DNA from: an uncultured Candidatus Saccharibacteria bacterium
Lineage (GTDB): Bacteria > Patescibacteriota > Andersenbacteria > UBA10190
Direction of reading: 5' to 3'
Length of the DNA: 64,000 nucleotides
Assembly: GCA_964359735.1 (NCBI GenBank)
Contig: CAYHTZ010000006.1
Location: 3,898-67,897, forward strand
Position numbers and translations under genes: made by a program. A model generated the notes under the pieces. That model searched no databases and was not told the DNA's origin. It saw only the letters and a program-made list of their open reading frames with translations. Shown piece by piece: positions 9,428 to 42,759 of this stretch (position 1 is the stretch's first letter; every line of letters begins with the position of its first letter).

Positions 9428-9524
9428 CCCAGCACCCTTTCGAAAGGGTGCTGGGATGACCATGTGAGACTCATGGGCCGACCGTACAGTCGGGACCCCG
9501 CATATGCGGGGTGCGTAAGAACGC
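9428..9524 (+). promoter_or_regulatory. highly structured 5' leader (five tandem GC-rich hairpins) upstream of the DMT transporter gene; candidate cis-regulatory RNA or operator
   Basis: 13-bp perfect stem CCCAGCACCCTTT-CGAA-AAAGGGTGCTGGG (9428-9455), CCATG..CATGG (9460-9476), CCGAC..GTCGG (9478-9493), 16-bp palindrome CCCCGCATATGCGGGG (9496-9511), GCGT..ACGC (9513-9524), then SD AAAGGAG and ATG at 9540. Confidence 0.4.
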
Positions 9525-9539: not shown

Positions 9540-10454
9540 ATGAACCAAACACAACTTGGATCGTTGGCGGTGATTGTGGCAGCCCTCTTGTGGAGCCTAG
9601 ATGGGTATCTTCGGCAATCGCTCTATTCGTTGCCGCCGACCGTTGTCGTGTTTTGGGAGCACGTGGTGGGATTCGTCATTTTGCTGCCGATCATACTAGC
9701 GACACTGCGCCGTTTTCGAGAGGTGACAAAAAAGCAGTGGTGGGCAATTGCGCTGGTATCATTTCTATCTGGAGCGCTGGGAACAATTCTCTACACCGCA
9801 GCGCTGGGGAAGGCGCAATACATTCCCTTTTCAGTGGTGGTGTTCTTGCAGCAATTGCAGCCGGTGTTTGCCATCTCCGCCGCCGCGCTGCTTCTTAAGG
9901 AGCCTATCGGAAAGCGCTTTGCGCTCCTTGCGGCGCTGGCACTGGTGGCGGCCTATTTCATTTCATTCCCAGATCTCACCGTGGCCGCGACCAAGGCGGG
10001 TACGTTTCTGGCAGCCATCATGGCGCTGGGCGCGGCTGCGAGCTGGGGAGCGTCCACGGCCTTTTCGAAATATGCTCTCAAGGATACGTCGTTCTTACAT
10101 ATTACGGCGGCACGATTTGGTTTGGCACCAATCTTTGCGCTCGTTTTAGCTTTTATGTTAGGGCACTCATCTTCCCTTCTTGCCTTAAGCGGACCGCAGT
10201 GGGGGAAGATCGTGGCCATTACATTTTCTACGGGTCTGGTGGCGCTGGCGATTTACTACTTTGGCCTAAAAAGAATTCCTGCCTCTCGTTCGACACTGCT
10301 CGAGCTTACTTGGCCGCTTTCGGCCGCGCTGGTCGGGTTCTTTTTTCTCGGAGATAGGCTCACTGGCACTCAGTGGCTGGGAGCGCTGGTTTTGATAGTC
10401 GTTATCTACCTTGTTGAACGGGATGCGGAGAGAGTGACACGTCAGCCGGCATAG
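9540..10454 (+). CDS. DMT-superfamily (EamA-like) permease
   Basis: 10-TM profile with two EamA-like halves; strong SD. Confidence 0.8.
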   Translation: MNQTQLGSLAVIVAALLWSLDGYLRQSLYSLPPTVVVFWEHVVGFVILLPIILATLRRFREVTKKQWWAIALVSFLSGALGTILYTAALGKAQYIPFSVVVFLQQLQPVFAISAAALLLKEPIGKRFALLAALALVAAYFISFPDLTVAATKAGTFLAAIMALGAAASWGASTAFSKYALKDTSFLHITAARFGLAPIFALVLAFMLGHSSSLLALSGPQWGKIVAITFSTGLVALAIYYFGLKRIPASRSTLLELTWPLSAALVGFFFLGDRLTGTQWLGALVLIVVIYLVERDAERVTRQPA

Positions 10455-12195: not shown

Positions 12196-13497
12196 ATGTC
12201 CTCCTTTGCTGGGCGCTACGTGCCGAGAGGCAGCGTGGTCTTGGCGGCAACTACATTTGGTTCGTACGCGCTAGGGCTGTTGCGCGACCGAATTTTTGCA
12301 CAAAGGTTTGGGTTATCAGAAAGCCTCGATAGTTACAATGCGGCGTTCCTCGTACCGGATTTCCTTTTTAACCTCTTAGTGGCCAGCGGTATTGCAGCGG
12401 CTACGGTGCCGCTCTACCTAGAAATTAAGAAACGCAACGCCAAGCAAGCAGATGTTTATATTTCAGCGCTGCTTACCTTGGCGACGATCGTTATGCTGGT
12501 TGTCAGTATAGTAGTGGTAATTTTTGCACCGCAGTTTAGCCTGCTCGTGGCGCCAGGGCTTTCGGAGGGAGGACAAGTGATGGTTGTAAGCCTGATGCGA
12601 GTTTTGGCGTTTTCTTCTGTGCTCTTTGCCGCATCGAACACATTAGGAGCAATGTTGGTGGCGAAGAAGCGCTTTTTCTGGTATGGAGTCTCCCCCATTT
12701 TATATAACGTGGGCATTATTGGGGGAAGTCTTTGGTTGGCACCACGGTTTGGCATCCAAGGTGTGGCGTACGGAACACTGGCGGGAGCCGTACTCCATTT
12801 AGCGGTGCGCTTTTGGGATGCCTGGCAGTCTGGCTGGCGCTGGCGAGAAGATCGGTTCCCGAAACAGGAACTTGTCCGCACCTTTAAGCTGATGCTGCCT
12901 AAAATGGTGGGGCACCCAGTGGAGCTGGCTACCTTTTGGATATTTACGACGCTGGCTTCAACGCTTGGAGCAGGCTCGATCAGCGCGCTCAACTTTGCGC
13001 GTAACTTTCAGAGCGTACCGGTGAGTCTCTTGGGAATCGCCATGGCCACGGCTGTCTTTCCTTCGCTCTCCGAAGCGGCACTGACGTCCGCCAGCGAACT
13101 CAAGAAACTTTTTCACCGCACGGCGCTTTCCATCTTGGTAGTCAGTGCCGCGGCTGCCATATTTCTCTACCTTATACGGGCCCCACTCGTGGCGATTCTT
13201 TTGGGTGGGGGAAGTTTCGATGGTGACGCCGTAATGCGAGTGGCGGTTACACTCGGGATATTTTGTCTTTCGATCCCAACCGAATCGCTCTCCCATCTTT
13301 TTGCGCGCGCGTTTTATGCCGTGCAGGATACCCTAATTCCTGTGGCGTTTAGTGTGGCCAGTTTGGTAGTAGCCGGCATTTCTGCGTGGTGGTTTATTCA
13401 ACGCATGGGGATTATCGGTCTCCCTCTCGGGTTTTTCTTAGGAAGCGCGGTGAAAACGGCGGGGCTGTACGTGGTGTTTGTTAGCCGGAGGAGTTGA
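12196..13497 (+). CDS. murJ: lipid II flippase MurJ/MviN (short form)
   Basis: N-terminal MurJ block (RGSVVLAATTFGSYALGLLRDRIFAQRFG.S...D.Y..AF..P). Confidence 0.85.
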   Translation: MSSFAGRYVPRGSVVLAATTFGSYALGLLRDRIFAQRFGLSESLDSYNAAFLVPDFLFNLLVASGIAAATVPLYLEIKKRNAKQADVYISALLTLATIVMLVVSIVVVIFAPQFSLLVAPGLSEGGQVMVVSLMRVLAFSSVLFAASNTLGAMLVAKKRFFWYGVSPILYNVGIIGGSLWLAPRFGIQGVAYGTLAGAVLHLAVRFWDAWQSGWRWREDRFPKQELVRTFKLMLPKMVGHPVELATFWIFTTLASTLGAGSISALNFARNFQSVPVSLLGIAMATAVFPSLSEAALTSASELKKLFHRTALSILVVSAAAAIFLYLIRAPLVAILLGGGSFDGDAVMRVAVTLGIFCLSIPTESLSHLFARAFYAVQDTLIPVAFSVASLVVAGISAWWFIQRMGIIGLPLGFFLGSAVKTAGLYVVFVSRRS

Positions 13498-15167: not shown

Positions 15168-15485
15168 ATGGCAGATCAGCAAATGACGAATATGCCAGTT
15201 TCAGAAGGAGACGGGGGTGGCGGCATGGGCACCGGTATGGTGGTAGGGGTTATTGTGGTCATTCTGATCATCATAGGTCTCTTCATCATCTTTGGACGGG
15301 GGGAAACGCCAGCTACGACCGGGCCGGCGGCTCCTGAGGAAGCAGGTACTCAAGAAGGAGCGAGAACCCAAGAAGACGCCGGAGCAGAAGTAAACCTCCC
15401 TTCGGCGGTTGATCTCAACGTGAACCAGGGACAGCAGCCAGCGTCGGAAGGAGCAATGGAAAAGAAAGTGTCACCGCAGCCTTAG
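15168..15485 (+). CDS. small membrane protein (single TM)
   Basis: Full SD AAGGAGGTGA 7 nt upstream of ATG; TM segment VVGVIVVILIIIGLFIIF. Confidence 0.55.
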   Translation: MADQQMTNMPVSEGDGGGGMGTGMVVGVIVVILIIIGLFIIFGRGETPATTGPAAPEEAGTQEGARTQEDAGAEVNLPSAVDLNVNQGQQPASEGAMEKKVSPQP

Positions 15486-15542
15486 TCGTACTGGCGGAGC
15501 GAATATTTAAAAAACAGGGAACGAACTATCTTCCCTGTTTTT

Positions 15543-15869
15543 ATGCGATGTGATATTATAAATGTAGAACGCAGGATCGCGGCGCTGCAGGCCGCGGGCC
15601 ATGATATTACCGTGGAGACGGAACTCGCCGCTGTGAAGGCAGCCGTGGCGGATGCGCAAGCACAGATCGATGCCGTGTTAGCCAAACTAGAAGAAATTCC
15701 TGATAGTGAAAAGCCGCGGGATGTTATGATGCAAGTGAAGGAACTGGTACAGGGCCTGCGCGATGATTTGAAAAAGGTACGTGACGCTTTTCATGCGTTG
15801 AGTAAAGCAGTGCGTGATGATGTGCGCGCATCCATTTCTCCTTCTCCAACGGTAACGGTAACGCCATGA
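15543..15869 (+). CDS. hypothetical helical protein
   Basis: ORF only. Confidence 0.4.
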   Translation: MRCDIINVERRIAALQAAGHDITVETELAAVKAAVADAQAQIDAVLAKLEEIPDSEKPRDVMMQVKELVQGLRDDLKKVRDAFHALSKAVRDDVRASISPSPTVTVTP

Positions 15870-16126
15870 AGCAATCGAATCTCATTTGGGTAATACTGGT
15901 TGTGATTGTTCTCGTGTTGGGTGTTGTCTGGGCAATGAAGAAGAGCGGGGTTACGTATGATTCGACCTCACGTCTTGAGTACGAGTCGACTTCAATGGGT
16001 GACACAATGGTAGGCCCGGAGCAAGGCATGGATGACCTCGCCACTGAAACTGAAAGTAGTGCTGCCCTGGATAGCAGCGTGGATTCGGATTTGCAACACC
16101 TCGATAAAGAACTGCAGGGAATCTAG
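15866..16126 (+). CDS. small membrane protein (single TM, acidic tail)
   Basis: 4-bp overlap with the previous ORF; TM segment LIWVILVVIVLVLGVVWA. Confidence 0.45.
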   Translation: MKQSNLIWVILVVIVLVLGVVWAMKKSGVTYDSTSRLEYESTSMGDTMVGPEQGMDDLATETESSAALDSSVDSDLQHLDKELQGI

Positions 16127-16188
16127 CATTTTCCACTCACTTGCGGGGCTGTGCCGGGAGCGGTACATATAGTAGTTATCCAAGAATC

Positions 16189-16899
16189 ATGAAGCGCTGG
16201 ATTTTTCTGAGTGCATTTTTGGCGGCCGCCGGGGTTGCCAGTTTGTGGTGGTCACAAGGAGCGCCAGCGCCTTCAGCTCCCGCTCCCACTGAGGTTCCGG
16301 CACTGGTCGCGCAACTGCCCGTCGCAGAAGAGGTTGAGGCGGCGTCCCCACCTTCTCTCAATGCGGAGGTAGCATTTGTGGGGCCGCGGGAGAATATCCC
16401 GGCCGAGGCGCCGACAGCTCATGGGTTTTGGTCGTTTGCACAAGCGGTGCCAGGAGCGCTTTCTCGCTCGGGGCAACCTTTAGTAAGTGAATTCGAGTGG
16501 TTGAAGAATCAGGGGTGGAAAAGCGTGGTGAATTTGCGGACAGATGGCGAGCGCTTGGAAATAGGGGACGATGCAAAGCTGCCTGGCTTCCTAGAGTTAG
16601 GTTTGCAATATATGCATTTACCCATGCGTGACGGCAGCCCGCCTACTTCGCAGCAGGCAGAGTCGTTCTTAGTATTTGTGACGAAATCAGAGAATCAACC
16701 CGTGCATGTGCACTGCCGCGGCGGCATCGGCCGGGCGGGCACAATGACAGCACTCTATCGCTACGCCGTGCAAGGTTGGCCGATGCAAGAAGCGATTGCC
16801 GAATCTCGTCTCTTCGAAGGAGGTGTCAGCGATTCACAAAAGCAGTGGCTCCTCGAGTGGGCAAGTACAAATTTGCCGGGGAATTATGGCAAAACGTAG
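16189..16899 (+). CDS. membrane-anchored protein tyrosine/dual-specificity phosphatase
   Basis: CX5R P-loop VHCRGGIGRAG; N-terminal signal or TM segment. Confidence 0.75.
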   Translation: MKRWIFLSAFLAAAGVASLWWSQGAPAPSAPAPTEVPALVAQLPVAEEVEAASPPSLNAEVAFVGPRENIPAEAPTAHGFWSFAQAVPGALSRSGQPLVSEFEWLKNQGWKSVVNLRTDGERLEIGDDAKLPGFLELGLQYMHLPMRDGSPPTSQQAESFLVFVTKSENQPVHVHCRGGIGRAGTMTALYRYAVQGWPMQEAIAESRLFEGGVSDSQKQWLLEWASTNLPGNYGKT

Positions 16900-16941: not shown

Positions 16942-16971
16942 ACACTCCCATATTTTGAAATATGGGAGTGT
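16942..16971. promoter_or_regulatory. 30-bp perfect palindrome ACACTCCCATATTT-TG-AAATATGGGAGTGT between convergent genes (operator candidate or bidirectional terminator)
   Basis: Near-identical half-site to the palindrome at 17460-17487 upstream of the same TrpR-like gene. Confidence 0.5.
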
Positions 16972-16977
16972 AAAAGT

Positions 16978-17433
16978 TTAGAGATCGCCTAGGAGTAGGC
17001 GGAAGAGAAGCATGCGGCTGTCGCCTCGCAGTGACCGTTGTAATTCCGGCGGAAAGTCATCAACTAGACTGCGCTGTCGGGCCCGGGCTGCGCGCTTTTT
17101 TCTACGGCTTCTAGCTTTTGCTAATCGTTTTTGACCTTCGCGAATTAATTGATACTCGTAGGCAGCATCAGTGAGCCAACGATCAACCCCGCCTATGGTG
17201 GAAGTTCCTGCACCCAATTTCCGCTGAATTTGCTCGTAGGTAAGACCGCTCACTAACATTTCTGCCACTTCCCAACGGCGCATGAGCATGACTACTTCAC
17301 TTTCAGTCAATAAGCGGTTCAAAAAGAATCGCACCTGTTCTTTCTTTTTAAGTGAGGCGATGATCTCTGCCAGGCGATCGAGAAATGCGCGTCGCTTTTC
17401 TGGTGCCAGTTTTCGGTAGTTATACCTTGCCAT
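16978..17433 (-). CDS. TrpR-family (YerC/YecD-like) DNA-binding protein with basic C-terminal extension
   Basis: LLTESEVVMLMRRWEVAEMLVSGLTYEQIQRKLGAGTSTIGGVDRWL matches the Trp repressor-like HTH; start at MARYNY with AAGGA SD. Confidence 0.7.
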   Translation of the reverse strand: MARYNYRKLAPEKRRAFLDRLAEIIASLKKKEQVRFFLNRLLTESEVVMLMRRWEVAEMLVSGLTYEQIQRKLGAGTSTIGGVDRWLTDAAYEYQLIREGQKRLAKARSRRKKRAARARQRSLVDDFPPELQRSLRGDSRMLLFRLLLGDL

Positions 17434-17459
17434 GTCCTTAATACCTTCAATTATTATTT

Positions 17460-17487
17460 TACTCCTATATTTCAAAATATAGGAGTA
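17460..17487. promoter_or_regulatory. 28-bp palindrome TACTCCTATATTT-CA-AAATATAGGAGTA centred about 40 bp upstream of the TrpR-like start; candidate autoregulatory operator overlapping the promoter
   Basis: Shares half-site TACTCC(C/T)ATATTT with the 16942-16971 palindrome; followed (minus strand) by TAAAAT and the SD. Confidence 0.5.
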
Positions 17488-17660
17488 AAATAAGTGTGTA
17501 TATCTTTTAGCCGGGGCTCTATAAGCCGGCGGCAATGAGCTGATCGCGGAGAGATGTGATTTCGAGAATGGCGGTTTGGGCTAGGTTGCCGGCGGCGATT
17601 TGCTTTTCAAGCTCGCTCTGGAAACTTTTAAAGTCTGCCTGCATTCCCAGGCTTGTGTCA

Positions 17661-18140
17661 CTAAACTACTTTTTTGCGTCGGTAGATTGTGTATGCTCCA
17701 CCACCTGCGACTAGGGCGGCGAGAGTTATAATGATCACGCCTAAGCCACTATCTTCTGAGTTAGCTGGGATTGTTACAGGAACATTCGCTGGCTCATTAG
17801 TGGGTGTTGGAGAAGACTCTTTAGTGACGCCCAGGACTTCGCCCTCTGAGTCTGGTGTTGGACTAAGTACAGGTGCGGTGTTCGAGCTAGGAGATGGTGT
17901 AGGAGACGAAGCGATCATTTTGGTTGGGAGTGGTGTCGATTTTTTAGTTGTGATTGGGGGTAGCTGTGCTCCGCCACTGTGACAATGCCGTTCGTCCCAC
18001 GCCTCGCCCCACTTGTCACAGTTGGTTCGACAGTAATGGCAGCCATCTGAGGCGGTGTTGCCAGGATGGGCATACACAGGAGGACCCAGCACTAATGTGC
18101 TCAAGGTAATTGTTAGGAATACTTCTCCCCTAATAGTCAT
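17661..18140 (-). CDS. secreted Cys/His-rich protein with Pro/Ser/Thr linker and C-terminal TM anchor
   Basis: Signal peptide; cluster DGCHYCRTNCDKWGEAWDERHCHSGG (possible metal site); C-terminal hydrophobic segment plus RRKK. Confidence 0.5.
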   Translation of the reverse strand: MTIRGEVFLTITLSTLVLGPPVYAHPGNTASDGCHYCRTNCDKWGEAWDERHCHSGGAQLPPITTKKSTPLPTKMIASSPTPSPSSNTAPVLSPTPDSEGEVLGVTKESSPTPTNEPANVPVTIPANSEDSGLGVIIITLAALVAGGGAYTIYRRKKVV

Positions 18141-20044: not shown

Positions 20045-20755
20045 ATGATTTCCATAGTCATCCCGGCGTACAACGAGGAAAAGTATATTGGGGCGTGCTT
20101 GGCGTCGCTGGAGAAACAAGTGACTCGGCAAGAGTTTGAAGTGATTGTGGTTGATAACGCGTCAACGGATGGAACGGCTGAAATAGTGAAGTCATTTGTC
20201 GGTCGTGCACCGGTGAAGTTGGTACACGAACCAAAGAAGGGGCGGGGGCCGGCCCGGGCGGCAGGGTTTGCTGCCACGCGCGGGGAGATTGTTTTATCGA
20301 CAGACGCGGATGCTGTGCTGCCGCCTAACTGGATAGCGATTATGTCGGCGCCTTTTTCTGACCCTCGCGTCATTGGAGTTACCGGTACGTGCTATATCTC
20401 TGATCGGTCGACGCCGGCAAATGCAATCTTCAATACCGTGCAGTGGTCTATTACATTTCTGTGGCGCCTTGTGTACGGGAACTTCTGGCTGCTTGGCTCT
20501 AATAGTGGAATCCGCAAAAGCGTTTACCAGCAGGCAGGAGGCTTTAACTTGATGTTGAATTCGCAGGAAGATACGCAGCTCAGCCTGGCGCTGCGTAAAT
20601 ATGGGAAAATACAATACGTTGGCGCTTCGCGGGTAGACACATCTGGCCGGCGCTACGATAAAGGAATTGTGGTCGGTCTGCTGGAATACGTTTGGTCATT
20701 TTTTGAGCGGTTCCTCTTGCGGCGCAAGAATGTCCACCTACGAGATGCGCGGTAG
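20045..20755 (+). CDS. family 2 glycosyltransferase
   Basis: VIPAYNEE...VVDNASTDGT and DAD motifs. Confidence 0.85.
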   Translation: MISIVIPAYNEEKYIGACLASLEKQVTRQEFEVIVVDNASTDGTAEIVKSFVGRAPVKLVHEPKKGRGPARAAGFAATRGEIVLSTDADAVLPPNWIAIMSAPFSDPRVIGVTGTCYISDRSTPANAIFNTVQWSITFLWRLVYGNFWLLGSNSGIRKSVYQQAGGFNLMLNSQEDTQLSLALRKYGKIQYVGASRVDTSGRRYDKGIVVGLLEYVWSFFERFLLRRKNVHLRDAR

Positions 20756-30865: not shown

Positions 30866-30888
30866 GCAATTCCACCTACGAGGTGGAA
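30866..30888 (+). terminator. hairpin AATTCCACCT-ACG-AGGTGGAATT after the stop codon
   Basis: 10-bp perfect stem; weak T tract. Confidence 0.35.
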
Positions 30889-30968
30889 TTCTCGGCACCG
30901 GAATCTGGGGCGGAGAGTGTGAATACTGCGCTTATCGCGAGGCCTGGCAGGAGGCGGAAGCTCGATGA
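30880..30968 (+). pseudogene. 3'-terminal fragment of a paralogous Cas4-like nuclease gene
   Basis: ...GECEYCAYREAWQEAEAR* is about 80% identical at DNA level to 29690-29790 (ECEYCMYREAWQTAESR). Confidence 0.45.
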
Positions 30969-35490: not shown

Positions 35491-35545
35491 TAACCCATAC
35501 GGCTGCAGATTCCACACCCCGTGTGGAATCGGTCTCATTTTTGTA
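35491..35545 (+). terminator. repeat-terminator copy 1: AACCCATACGGCTGCAGATTCCACAC-CCC-GTGTGGAATC then TTTTT
   Basis: 10-bp stem; near-identical copy at 36725-36770 with a complementary loop (GGG). Confidence 0.55.
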
Positions 35546-36724: not shown

Positions 36725-36770
36725 ACCCATAGGGCTGCAGATTCCACACGGGGTGTGGAATCTTTGTCTG
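36725..36770 (+). terminator. repeat-terminator copy 2: AACCCATAGGGCTGCAGATTCCACAC-GGG-GTGTGGAATC
   Basis: Between convergent genes. Confidence 0.5.
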
Positions 36771-38895: not shown

Positions 38896-38918
38896 GATTC
38901 CGCTCCAGGAGCGGAATT
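38896..38918. terminator. hairpin GATTCCGCTC-CAG-GAGCGGAAT between convergent genes
   Basis: Same GATTCC...GGAATC outer stem as the 35491/36725 repeats. Confidence 0.35.
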
Positions 38919-42123: not shown

Positions 42124-42759
42124 TTAGAGCAGATGGAAAGAGTCTAGAATTTGCTGGAAGACTTCGCGGCCTTGGGGGTATGTGTCAGGGTTGTACACAA
42201 AAGAGAAGGTGTAGGTAACGCCTTCATGGTGGATCATGGCATCGACCTGCTGGCCGAGCATGGTGCTGGGGTCGTTCTGGGCTCGGAATGAACCGGGAAT
42301 GCTATCAATAATAATCGGTCGGCTGGCGATGCCGGGACGGCTCATCACTTCATTGGGGTCACCGGGGCCGGCGTGCAAGCCGAATGACGCGCCGCGTTCG
42401 TAGTACTGGGGAACAAAGGGGCCATCGGTGTTTTCGTCAGCGCGAACAGAAAAATCAGGGCTTTGGGCACTGATGTAAGATAGTCTCACGCCTTTCTTGC
42501 CTTCACTGGCTGTAACTTTCCAGCCCGTGGGAAGAGTGATGCTATAAAGATTTGATTTGTCAGTGATGAGTTCCCCTTCGAGGGTTGGCAGGGGTGTTGG
42601 CGCTGGGGCGAGCCCCGTTTCAGAGGGACTGGCAGTTCCGCTCGCAGGAGCGGAACTTGTCTGAAACGGGGTAGGGCTTCTTAAGACAGCGTACCAGATT
42701 GCGGCCGCAAGGATGGCGAGGATAATAGCTGGACCAATCAGTAAAGGAAGACGTCGCAT
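42124..42759 (-). CDS. membrane-anchored hypothetical protein
   Basis: TM segment then linker TPFQTSSAPASGTASPSETG shared with the 14081 gene. Confidence 0.5.
   Translation of the reverse strand: MRRLPLLIGPAIILAILAAAIWYAVLRSPTPFQTSSAPASGTASPSETGLAPAPTPLPTLEGELITDKSNLYSITLPTGWKVTASEGKKGVRLSYISAQSPDFSVRADENTDGPFVPQYYERGASFGLHAGPGDPNEVMSRPGIASRPIIIDSIPGSFRAQNDPSTMLGQQVDAMIHHEGVTYTFSFVYNPDTYPQGREVFQQILDSFHLL
42613..42671. repeat. 59-bp nested palindromic cassette inside the CDS (outer arms CCCCGTTTCAGA/TCTGAAACGGGG, inner GTTCCGCTCGCAGGAGCGGAAC)
   Basis: Related to 14664-14729. Confidence 0.45.

Follow-up and report, generated by a model that had tools for sequence, protein, structure and literature searches.

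Why would a bacterium keep one regulator gene between two near-identical palindromes, one at its promoter and the other just past its stop codon? This is the arrangement around a single TrpR-family gene in a 64,000-nt stretch of contig CAYHTZ010000006.1 (the whole stretch that was analysed, hereafter the window), which comes from an uncultivated groundwater bacterium. An earlier note on this DNA had taken the two palindromes, here called P1 and P2, for an autoregulatory operator pair. Comparison with orthologous loci suggests that both are probably operators in a clade of Andersenbacteria-like members of the Candidate Phyla Radiation (CPR), with the upstream copy serving autorepression and the downstream copy acting as an auxiliary site, through looping or as a roadblock.

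Results

A matched pair of palindromes around one gene

P1, the downstream candidate operator, occupies positions 16942-16971 and reads ACACTCCCATATTT-TG-AAATATGGGAGTGT, a perfect 14+2+14 palindrome with a conserved 26-bp core at 16944-16969. It begins 6 nt past the stop codon of the regulator gene and lies, as had been noticed, between convergent genes, its convergent neighbour being a PTP-type phosphatase gene on the plus strand that ends at 16899. P2, the upstream, promoter-proximal candidate operator, reads TTATTTTACTCCTATATTT-CA-AAATATAGGAGTAAAATAA at 17454-17493 and, like P1, is assigned to no strand. The earlier note gave P2 a length of 28 bp, which holds for the core of a real palindrome but falls short of its full extent, a perfect 19+2+19 palindrome whose conserved 26-bp core (17461-17486) is ACTCCTATATTT-CA-AAATATAGGAGT. 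The other positional claims agree with what we measured: the dyad of P2 is 40 bp 5′ of the regulator ATG, the centres of P1 and P2 are 517 bp apart (about 500 bp had been estimated), and the two palindromes are indeed near-identical, their 26-bp cores being 92% complementary to each other.

Within the 64 kb the pair stands alone. A degenerate 24-mer, CTCCYATATTTYRAAATATRGGAG, matches only P1 and P2 with up to three mismatches, against an expectation of 0.00 from shuffled sequence (n = 100); the 12-nt half-site is found only in the four arms of P1 and P2, and no further copy occurs in the window at up to 7 mismatches in 26. The window is generally rich in perfect palindromes whose arms reach 9 nt or more (13, versus 0-3 in shuffles), and P1 and P2 are the sole members of their own sequence family. 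A motif search had been proposed as a way to define a regulon, and it defined none: besides the lack of an extra window copy, a scan of GTDB representative genomes with CTCCNATATTTNNAAATATNGGAG gave nine single matches in unrelated taxa (Lachnospiraceae, Flavobacteriaceae and others), which we treated as chance or unrelated. The matches of that scan did not include the window’s genome.

Both copies are conserved at orthologous loci and change together

Homologue DNA was fetched at 51-88% protein identity, with flanks of up to 10 kb per side where the contig allowed. The bulk of the comparative loci (designated L001 onwards) came from exact-protein look-ups, and a metagenome scan for relatives gave six loci, including the window’s own contig (L013, ENA ERZ1292623, Hainich groundwater). 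Merging duplicates (L013 with the window, L014 with L020 and L015 with L021) left 13 independent lineages in which both flanks could be read. All 13 carry a palindrome of 22-30 bp just upstream of the gene and another just downstream of it; in a fourteenth locus, L017, the sequence breaks off at the gene and only the downstream copy is visible. The two copies of a locus resemble each other far more than they resemble those of other loci, with a mean identity of 0.96 within loci versus 0.60 between them (range 0.31-0.96). The earlier note had held that a lack of conservation at orthologues would speak against an operator pair; since the palindromes are conserved there, both of them in every lineage and changing together, that objection falls away.

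The extent of this change is plain from the sites themselves, which are ACTCCyATATTT..AAATATrGGAGT in the window, AGTCCCATATATCGTGATATGGGACT in L002, CCCTCGATATTACGTAATATCGAGGG in L014, ACATCGACGCGTCAACGCGTCGATGT in L015, AGGTCGACGTATCGATATGTCGACCT in L025, ATTACGATATTACATAATGTCGTAAT in L019 and CTCGATATAACGTTATATGGAG in L022. Between the window and L001 the intergenic DNA cannot be aligned except at the palindromes and the -10 box, which remain as conserved islands. No further copies were found in the fetched flanks of the other loci except for third copies beside the unit in L021 and L022. In L021 the extra copy, followed by TATAAT, precedes a gene for an 88-aa membrane protein; in L022 a promoter-plus-palindrome module (9801-10000) is tandemly duplicated, the duplicates lying 91 bp apart. 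A related arrangement occurs in L026: a 92-aa gene begins 17 nt beyond the downstream copy, with the layout that the upstream copy has there. The 5′ leader of L022 also contains a direct repeat, ttggtatagtttttac, present twice, and its regulator gene sits inside a mur/ftsW/murG cell-wall cluster.

We considered whether the two-site bracket might be a trait of the whole family, and rejected this on the evidence of two relatives at about 30% identity. L018 (short and HisR-like) and L027 (the extended form, with the site CATTCACCTATTAATAGGTGAATG) have the upstream palindrome only. Because both are without a downstream copy, the bracket is a trait of the clade with at least 50% identity to the window protein. 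Autoregulatory upstream sites, by contrast, look general for the family.

Symmetry favours a duplex protein site over a hairpin

Across lineages the sites share a common core, C-N-A-T-A-T-N6-A-T-A-T-N-G, and with the conserved outer ACT/AGT this makes up the 26 bp. The A at ±7 is invariant and the C at ±9 is found in 27 of 28 sites. Symmetry continues through the centre in seven lineages (TTACGTAA, TTTTAAAA, AACGTT, ATCGAT), and the central dinucleotide is always pyrimidine-purine, being CG, TA, CA or TG. In L003 the right arms of both copies have decayed, each differently, and the left half and centre are identical. All this points to a dyad-symmetric protein site in double-stranded DNA more than to a hairpin, because central bases that could not pair in a hairpin loop are symmetric all the same.

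The alternative, that the palindromes act as RNA hairpins (non-canonical terminators or stabilisers of the 5′ or 3′ end of an mRNA), grew alike by copying and are not bound by the protein, has the folding energies on its side: P1 and P2 fold strongly, at -19 to -20 kcal/mol with z-scores of -4.6 to -7.9. Each window palindrome also comes directly after the stop codon of a minus-strand open reading frame (ORF), and other gene ends in the window bear hairpins without T tracts. We consider it improbable nonetheless. A hairpin explains neither the symmetric, unpairable central bases nor the constant pyrimidine-purine centre, and arm mismatches show no sense-strand bias towards G-U (C/A in L001, G/G in L022). 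In L003 both hairpins are broken and one half-site is retained. The upstream copy is probably not transcribed at all, as a -10 box lies downstream of it or overlaps it, and an RNA element offers no reason for a matched pair to stay with one gene through 13 lineages. Nothing exceeded the Rfam threshold; the one sub-threshold match, to a miRNA precursor on both strands, is a hairpin artefact, and a known RNA family was dismissed.

The suggestion that P1 might double as a bidirectional terminator is not supported either. Intrinsic terminators are recognised by a G+C-rich stem and a T/U run, whereas the inner stems of P1 and P2 are A+T-rich and no T run follows either palindrome; P1 has no T/U tract on either strand, and a terminator scan of the window reported neither P1 nor P2. 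At L001, L025 and L015/L021 a separate terminator-like hairpin lies 3′ of the downstream copy, with a T run after it only in L001 and L025. The upstream copy of L019 and copy 1 of L021 lie between divergent genes, where a terminator role can be set aside because there is nothing to terminate. Taken with the symmetry and the promoter position, the missing T run and the separate hairpins led us to reject termination as the main function.

A -10-like hexamer follows most upstream copies and no downstream copy

In the window, a -10-like hexamer, TAAAAT, is found on the minus strand at 17456-17461, 22 nt before the ATG. The overlap with P2 that had been claimed for it amounts to 1 nt, at the 3′ end of the core. 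The hexamer corresponds to TATAAT in the alignment with L001, and a hexamer matching TATAAT at five or more of six positions (TATAAT, TATACT, TATAGT or TAAAAT) follows 11 of 15 upstream copies, either overlapping the last core base or bases or sitting 10-16 nt further on. Because the -10 box comes after the upstream copy, that copy would cover the -35 region or spacer of the gene’s own promoter. Downstream copies differ: none of the 13 has a -10-like hexamer of this quality in either direction, and an antisense or outward promoter at that end was rejected accordingly.

The distance from site to -10 hexamer varies between lineages, which steric repression would tolerate and face-specific activation would not. 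In six loci (L003, L016, L021, L023, L026 and L002) just 6-9 nt separate the hexamer from the start codon, without a Shine-Dalgarno sequence, and the regulator is probably translated there from a leaderless mRNA. In the window and L019 the start codon is preceded by a leader that includes a ribosome-binding site, which in the window is a putative Shine-Dalgarno-like AAGGA on the minus strand (17435-17439), 1 nt from the ATG. At the other end of the gene, the downstream copy lies 2-26 nt past the stop codon in 10 lineages; in the other three the distance is 63, 70 and 167 nt.

The symmetry of P2 reaches 7 nt beyond the core on each side (17454-17460 and 17487-17493; TTATTTT/AAAATAA). This outer symmetry mirrors the TAAAAT onto the other strand, pointing antisense into the upstream ORF, and could reflect quasi-palindrome correction or a divergent promoter.

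The regulator belongs to the TrpR family and carries a conserved extension

The gene between the palindromes (16978-17433, minus strand) encodes a YerC/HisR-like protein of 151 aa whose start, MARYNYRKL, was set by alignment with homologues. Its assignment to the TrpR/YerC family is borne out by profile searches: it matches Pfam Trp_repressor (PF01371) over residues 18-95 with E = 1.4e-16 and 60.8 bits against a cutoff of 27, and TIGR02531 (yecD_yerC) with 52.4 bits against an NCBIfam cutoff of 42.2. TIGR01321, the equivalog for E. coli-type TrpR, is failed, with 20.8 bits against a cutoff of 67.25. The TrpR-like core spans approximately residues 11-100, with the helix-turn-helix at GAGTSTIGGVDRWL, and the clade profile matches the HisR-type structures 3frw, 3kor and 3g1c only over profile positions 11-107.

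An AlphaFold2 monomer model agrees with this. It predicts an all-helical TrpR-like fold with a helix-turn-helix (mean predicted local distance difference test score, pLDDT, of 82, and above 88 in the core), followed by a long basic helix at residues 85-125 and two short helices of low confidence. The best PDB matches of the model in Foldseek were 3kor, 3frw and 3g1c, then 1tro, with probabilities of 0.99-1.00; these alignments cover no more than 86-98 columns, which is roughly as long as the core itself. As we read the alignment, the clade has not kept the helix-turn-helix residues that contact tryptophan in TrpR (R84, G85 and S88), and the position equivalent to Arg84 and its recognition-helix neighbours vary across it. 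From the symmetry of the sites, the protein would bind as an intertwined homodimer on a dyad-symmetric operator.

Beyond the core, a C-terminal extension of about 45 residues (coding region 16981-17136, minus strand) has no counterpart in the canonical HisR/TrpR proteins of about 100 aa. It consists of a lysine- and arginine-rich helix and then the motif P.EL...RGDSR.(I/L)LFRLLLGD(L/F), and it is kept in all 26 clade members of the alignment; in the wider family the motif takes the form RxRYPxxFLLxNLLL. That family is large: when clustered at 50% identity it has 2601 representatives with E<=1e-3, of which 493 reach E<=1e-10. Its best matches are mostly 130-170 aa long, and one homologue is named by NCBI as Candidatus Andersenbacteria.

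The closest characterised relative is HisR, the histidine repressor, which is YerC in B. subtilis; it shares PF01371 and TIGR02531 with the window protein and supplies the closest structures, 3kor, 3frw and 3g1c. The HisR operator is 20 bp long (cacTTTA-N6-TAAAgtg, half-sites at -10 to -4) and has been validated in vitro (PMC9413887). This is the Firmicutes type, the proteobacterial-type consensus being TGTAnTA...TnTTACA; HisR motifs are lineage-specific, and a site of their own lies upstream of about half of hisR genes, a sign of autoregulation (PMC9413887). The window clade has the same N6 spacing around other bases (CnATAT-N6-ATATnG), and the distant 110-aa relative L018 has a HisR-type site upstream, ACTTTA-N6-TAAAGT (ACTTTAGTTAAGTAAAGT). 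HisR is a single domain of less than about 100-110 aa, in contrast to the extended 151-aa protein. HisR is not known to have a second site past the stop codon, and the HisR-like locus L018 lacks one. Among the 25 ORFs of the window scanned against Pfam (within 388-32307) there were no his or trp genes. The window protein is thus a member of the TrpR family, of YerC/YecD type by score, that differs from HisR in size and in operator sequence; no target genes of the HisR kind were seen in the DNA covered.

Gene conversion rather than mobility may keep the copies alike

One sequence at both ends of a single gene, with neighbours that differ between most loci, could also mark a small mobile or invertible cassette that carries the regulator gene, with the palindromes as its ends or recombination sites. 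The copies of a locus are identical down to their asymmetries whether direct or inverted, as would be expected of recombination between them. Several observations make a cassette very improbable. No transposase or recombinase gene lies in or beside the unit in the window or at the orthologous loci, no target-site duplications and no copies elsewhere were found in the DNA scanned, and there are no relatives in viral contigs. Copy orientation is mixed, the asymmetric copies being inverted in four lineages (the window, L002, L019 and L023) and direct in five (L001, L003, L015, L022 and L025). The window and L001 share the upstream gene and the downstream membrane protein gene, so that the unit has stayed put at 88% identity. 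A mobile or phage origin was rejected on the lack of viral relatives, the lack of a recombinase and this synteny with L001.

Synteny between the two loci is interrupted by about 1.7 kb of extra DNA in the window, between the regulator gene and the gene for a glycine-rich small membrane protein (15168-16899, versus 917-1328 in L001). The insertion holds two small ORFs and a DSP/PTP-type phosphatase gene (16141-16899); the membrane protein gene beyond it (15168-15485) encodes 105 aa in the window and 98 aa in L001. On the upstream side, the minus-strand 41-aa ORF at 17519-17644 matches only the C-terminal end of an L001 gene of at least 130 aa (L001 1-393) and is preceded by a separate 159-aa ORF (17661-18140), which may mean that a gene was split or frameshifted, or that the gene structure differs.

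Asymmetries shared by the copies of one locus include the G/G mismatch in all three copies of L022 and the C/A mismatch in both copies of L001. Because a symmetric dimer does not require them, they suggest that gene conversion or very recent duplication helps to keep the copies identical, besides selection by a common reader. We also considered a single inversion between the palindrome centres that would turn the window sites (T|T and C|C halves) into the L001 hybrids (C|T in both) and dropped it in favour of gene conversion or mutation, because the orientation of the gene to its upstream neighbour does not differ between the two loci.

Other palindromes and neighbouring genes

The window contains a second family of perfect palindromes, at 30868-30890, 35508-35530, 36739-36763, 38897-38917 and 42634-42657. 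They take the forms (A/G)ATTCCAC..GTGGAAT(C/T) and ATTCCGCTC..GAGCGGAAT with loops of 1-4 nt, and mostly lie just after the stop codons of plus-strand ORFs, with a ..ctgc-like context on the 5′ side and no T tracts after them. They could be a non-canonical type of terminator, elements of the repetitive extragenic palindromic kind, or the sites of another regulator. A 28-bp perfect palindrome, CCCAGCACCCTTTCGAAAGGGTGCTGGG (9428-9455), and an 18-bp one, ACCCCGCATATGCGGGGT (9495-9512), stand just upstream of an EamA-family transporter gene (9540-10454) and may form an operator or regulatory region.

Cell-envelope glycan genes are frequent neighbours of the regulator, in L002, L003, L020, L023, L024 and L025 as well as in the window (12196-13497 and 20045-20755). 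They include NAD-dependent epimerases, glycosyltransferases, PMT_2, dTDP-sugar isomerase, MurJ and mur genes, and may be found there simply because CPR genomes have many of them.

Discussion

Apart from its unusual second site, the locus is probably a genuine and rather ordinary case of self-regulation. On the pairing of gene and sites described above, it is highly likely that the encoded TrpR/HisR-type dimer binds both palindromes, recognising C-N-A-T-A-T-N6-A-T-A-T-N-G much as HisR recognises TTTA-N6-TAAA, to judge from the family and the layout. Repression of the regulator’s own promoter by occupancy of the upstream site is likely too: with the site over the -35 region or spacer and touching the -10, a bound dimer would exclude RNA polymerase and give negative autoregulation. 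In a few lineages the extra copies would place neighbouring small genes under the same control.

The helix-turn-helix repressor TrpR of E. coli binds palindromic operators as a dimer, or as tandem dimers, and has its own gene among its targets. It belongs to the same fold family (1tro and 1trr are among the Foldseek matches), although the TIGR01321 match is weak. TrpR controls a dispersed amino-acid regulon, whereas here, in the DNA seen, the sites are found only at the gene’s own flanks.

For the second site the closer parallels lie outside the family. Looping repressors such as LacI (O1/O2/O3), GalR (OE/OI), DeoR, lambda CI (OL-OR) and TP901-1 CI (OR/OL/OD) combine a promoter-proximal operator with one or more promoterless auxiliary operators 0.1-2 kb away, and this asymmetry matches that between the upstream and downstream copies. 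In all 13 lineages we find the arrangement of that class, a promoter operator and a promoterless distal one, both being predicted operators. These repressors come from a different protein family, and here the auxiliary site is just past the stop codon, which would put the whole regulator gene inside the loop. By analogy, the unit may work like an autoregulated HisR/TrpR repressor with an added distal operator of the LacI, GalR or CI kind. In the most speculative step, bridging of sites about 0.5 kb apart would form a loop round the gene and raise occupancy of the promoter. The conserved basic and hydrophobic C-terminal extension is only a candidate for the bridging element. We regard an auxiliary operator that acts by looping as possible but somewhat doubtful.

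Alternatively or in addition, protein bound at the 3′ end of the gene might block polymerases entering or leaving it, as a roadblock or insulator that stops convergent polymerases or the gene’s own transcript, with the upstream site still the operator of autorepression. The regulator level would then be set by its own promoter alone, because other polymerases would be stopped. This is consistent with the closeness of the downstream copy to the stop codon in 10 of 13 lineages, with a convergent next gene in five of the 13 (the window among them), and with the lack of any indication of protein assembly beyond the dimer. Termination appears to occur elsewhere, at the separate hairpins of L001, L025 and L015/L021, the next gene is co-directional in seven lineages, and closeness to the stop codon may mean nothing in genomes whose intergenic regions are short. 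A roadblock or insulator role for the downstream site therefore seems unlikely to us, if less so than the RNA hairpins discussed above.

Several points weigh against the operator model as a whole, which is a product of comparative inference. The centre-to-centre distances run from 493 to 672 bp without helical phasing, which also speaks for a roadblock. The C-terminal helices are of low confidence (pLDDT ~60), and the protein was modelled as a monomer only. The own-gene-only distribution of sites covers 64 kb of this genome, beyond which a wider regulon may exist. Asymmetries shared between copies in L001, L022 and L025 are not needed by a symmetric dimer, and a missing T run alone is weak evidence against a terminator at P1, because other gene-end hairpins in the window lack T tracts too.

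The residues of the recognition helix, moreover, do not simply follow the site sequence. Identical helices do pair with near-identical sites (the window with L001, and P0020 with P0024), but the helix of L023 reads ...STIRDVDG against ...STIGGVDR in the window, and the sites of these two are 90% identical; this exception led us to drop a simple code from the variable helix residues (G-x-S-T-I-x-x-V-D) to the bases of the site. The mismatch between helix and site would suit palindromes that belong to another DNA-binding protein, encoded elsewhere in the genome. Such a reader is hardly to be expected where the sites lie only beside this gene in every lineage examined and change in step, and where the operator layout is that of the encoded protein’s own family (PMC9413887).

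A bolder form of the operator model would make the protein a self-only regulator. It would act at its two flanking sites (and, in some lineages, at an adjacent small membrane-protein gene), and bridge them through its C-terminal extension into a loop of about 0.5 kb round the whole gene; gene conversion would keep the sites matched as they co-drift with its specificity. We think this unlikely. If true, the module would work as an insulated homeostat or switch, complete in itself, and would rank among the very few regulators conserved in CPR genomes; its real output might be not a regulon but a second activity of the C-terminal motif, such as interaction with a partner or a membrane.

We found no description of this clade or of the two-site arrangement in the literature searched, and none there that links CPR or Patescibacteria with TrpR-type regulators. 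Nothing known is overturned by the locus. To our knowledge, transcriptional regulation in the CPR is almost unexplored, and none of these organisms is genetically tractable. For such organisms the locus offers a concrete candidate regulator-operator pair that can be synthesised, and the joint change of both sites across 13 lineages amounts to a natural experiment in its support. With it, the TrpR/HisR family also gains a large clade of longer proteins (140-170 aa) that share a conserved C-terminal motif. The unusual layout, with the regulator gene wholly between its putative operators, would make a clean system for weighing TrpR-type looping against polymerase blocking, and for asking how a protein and its two sites co-evolve.

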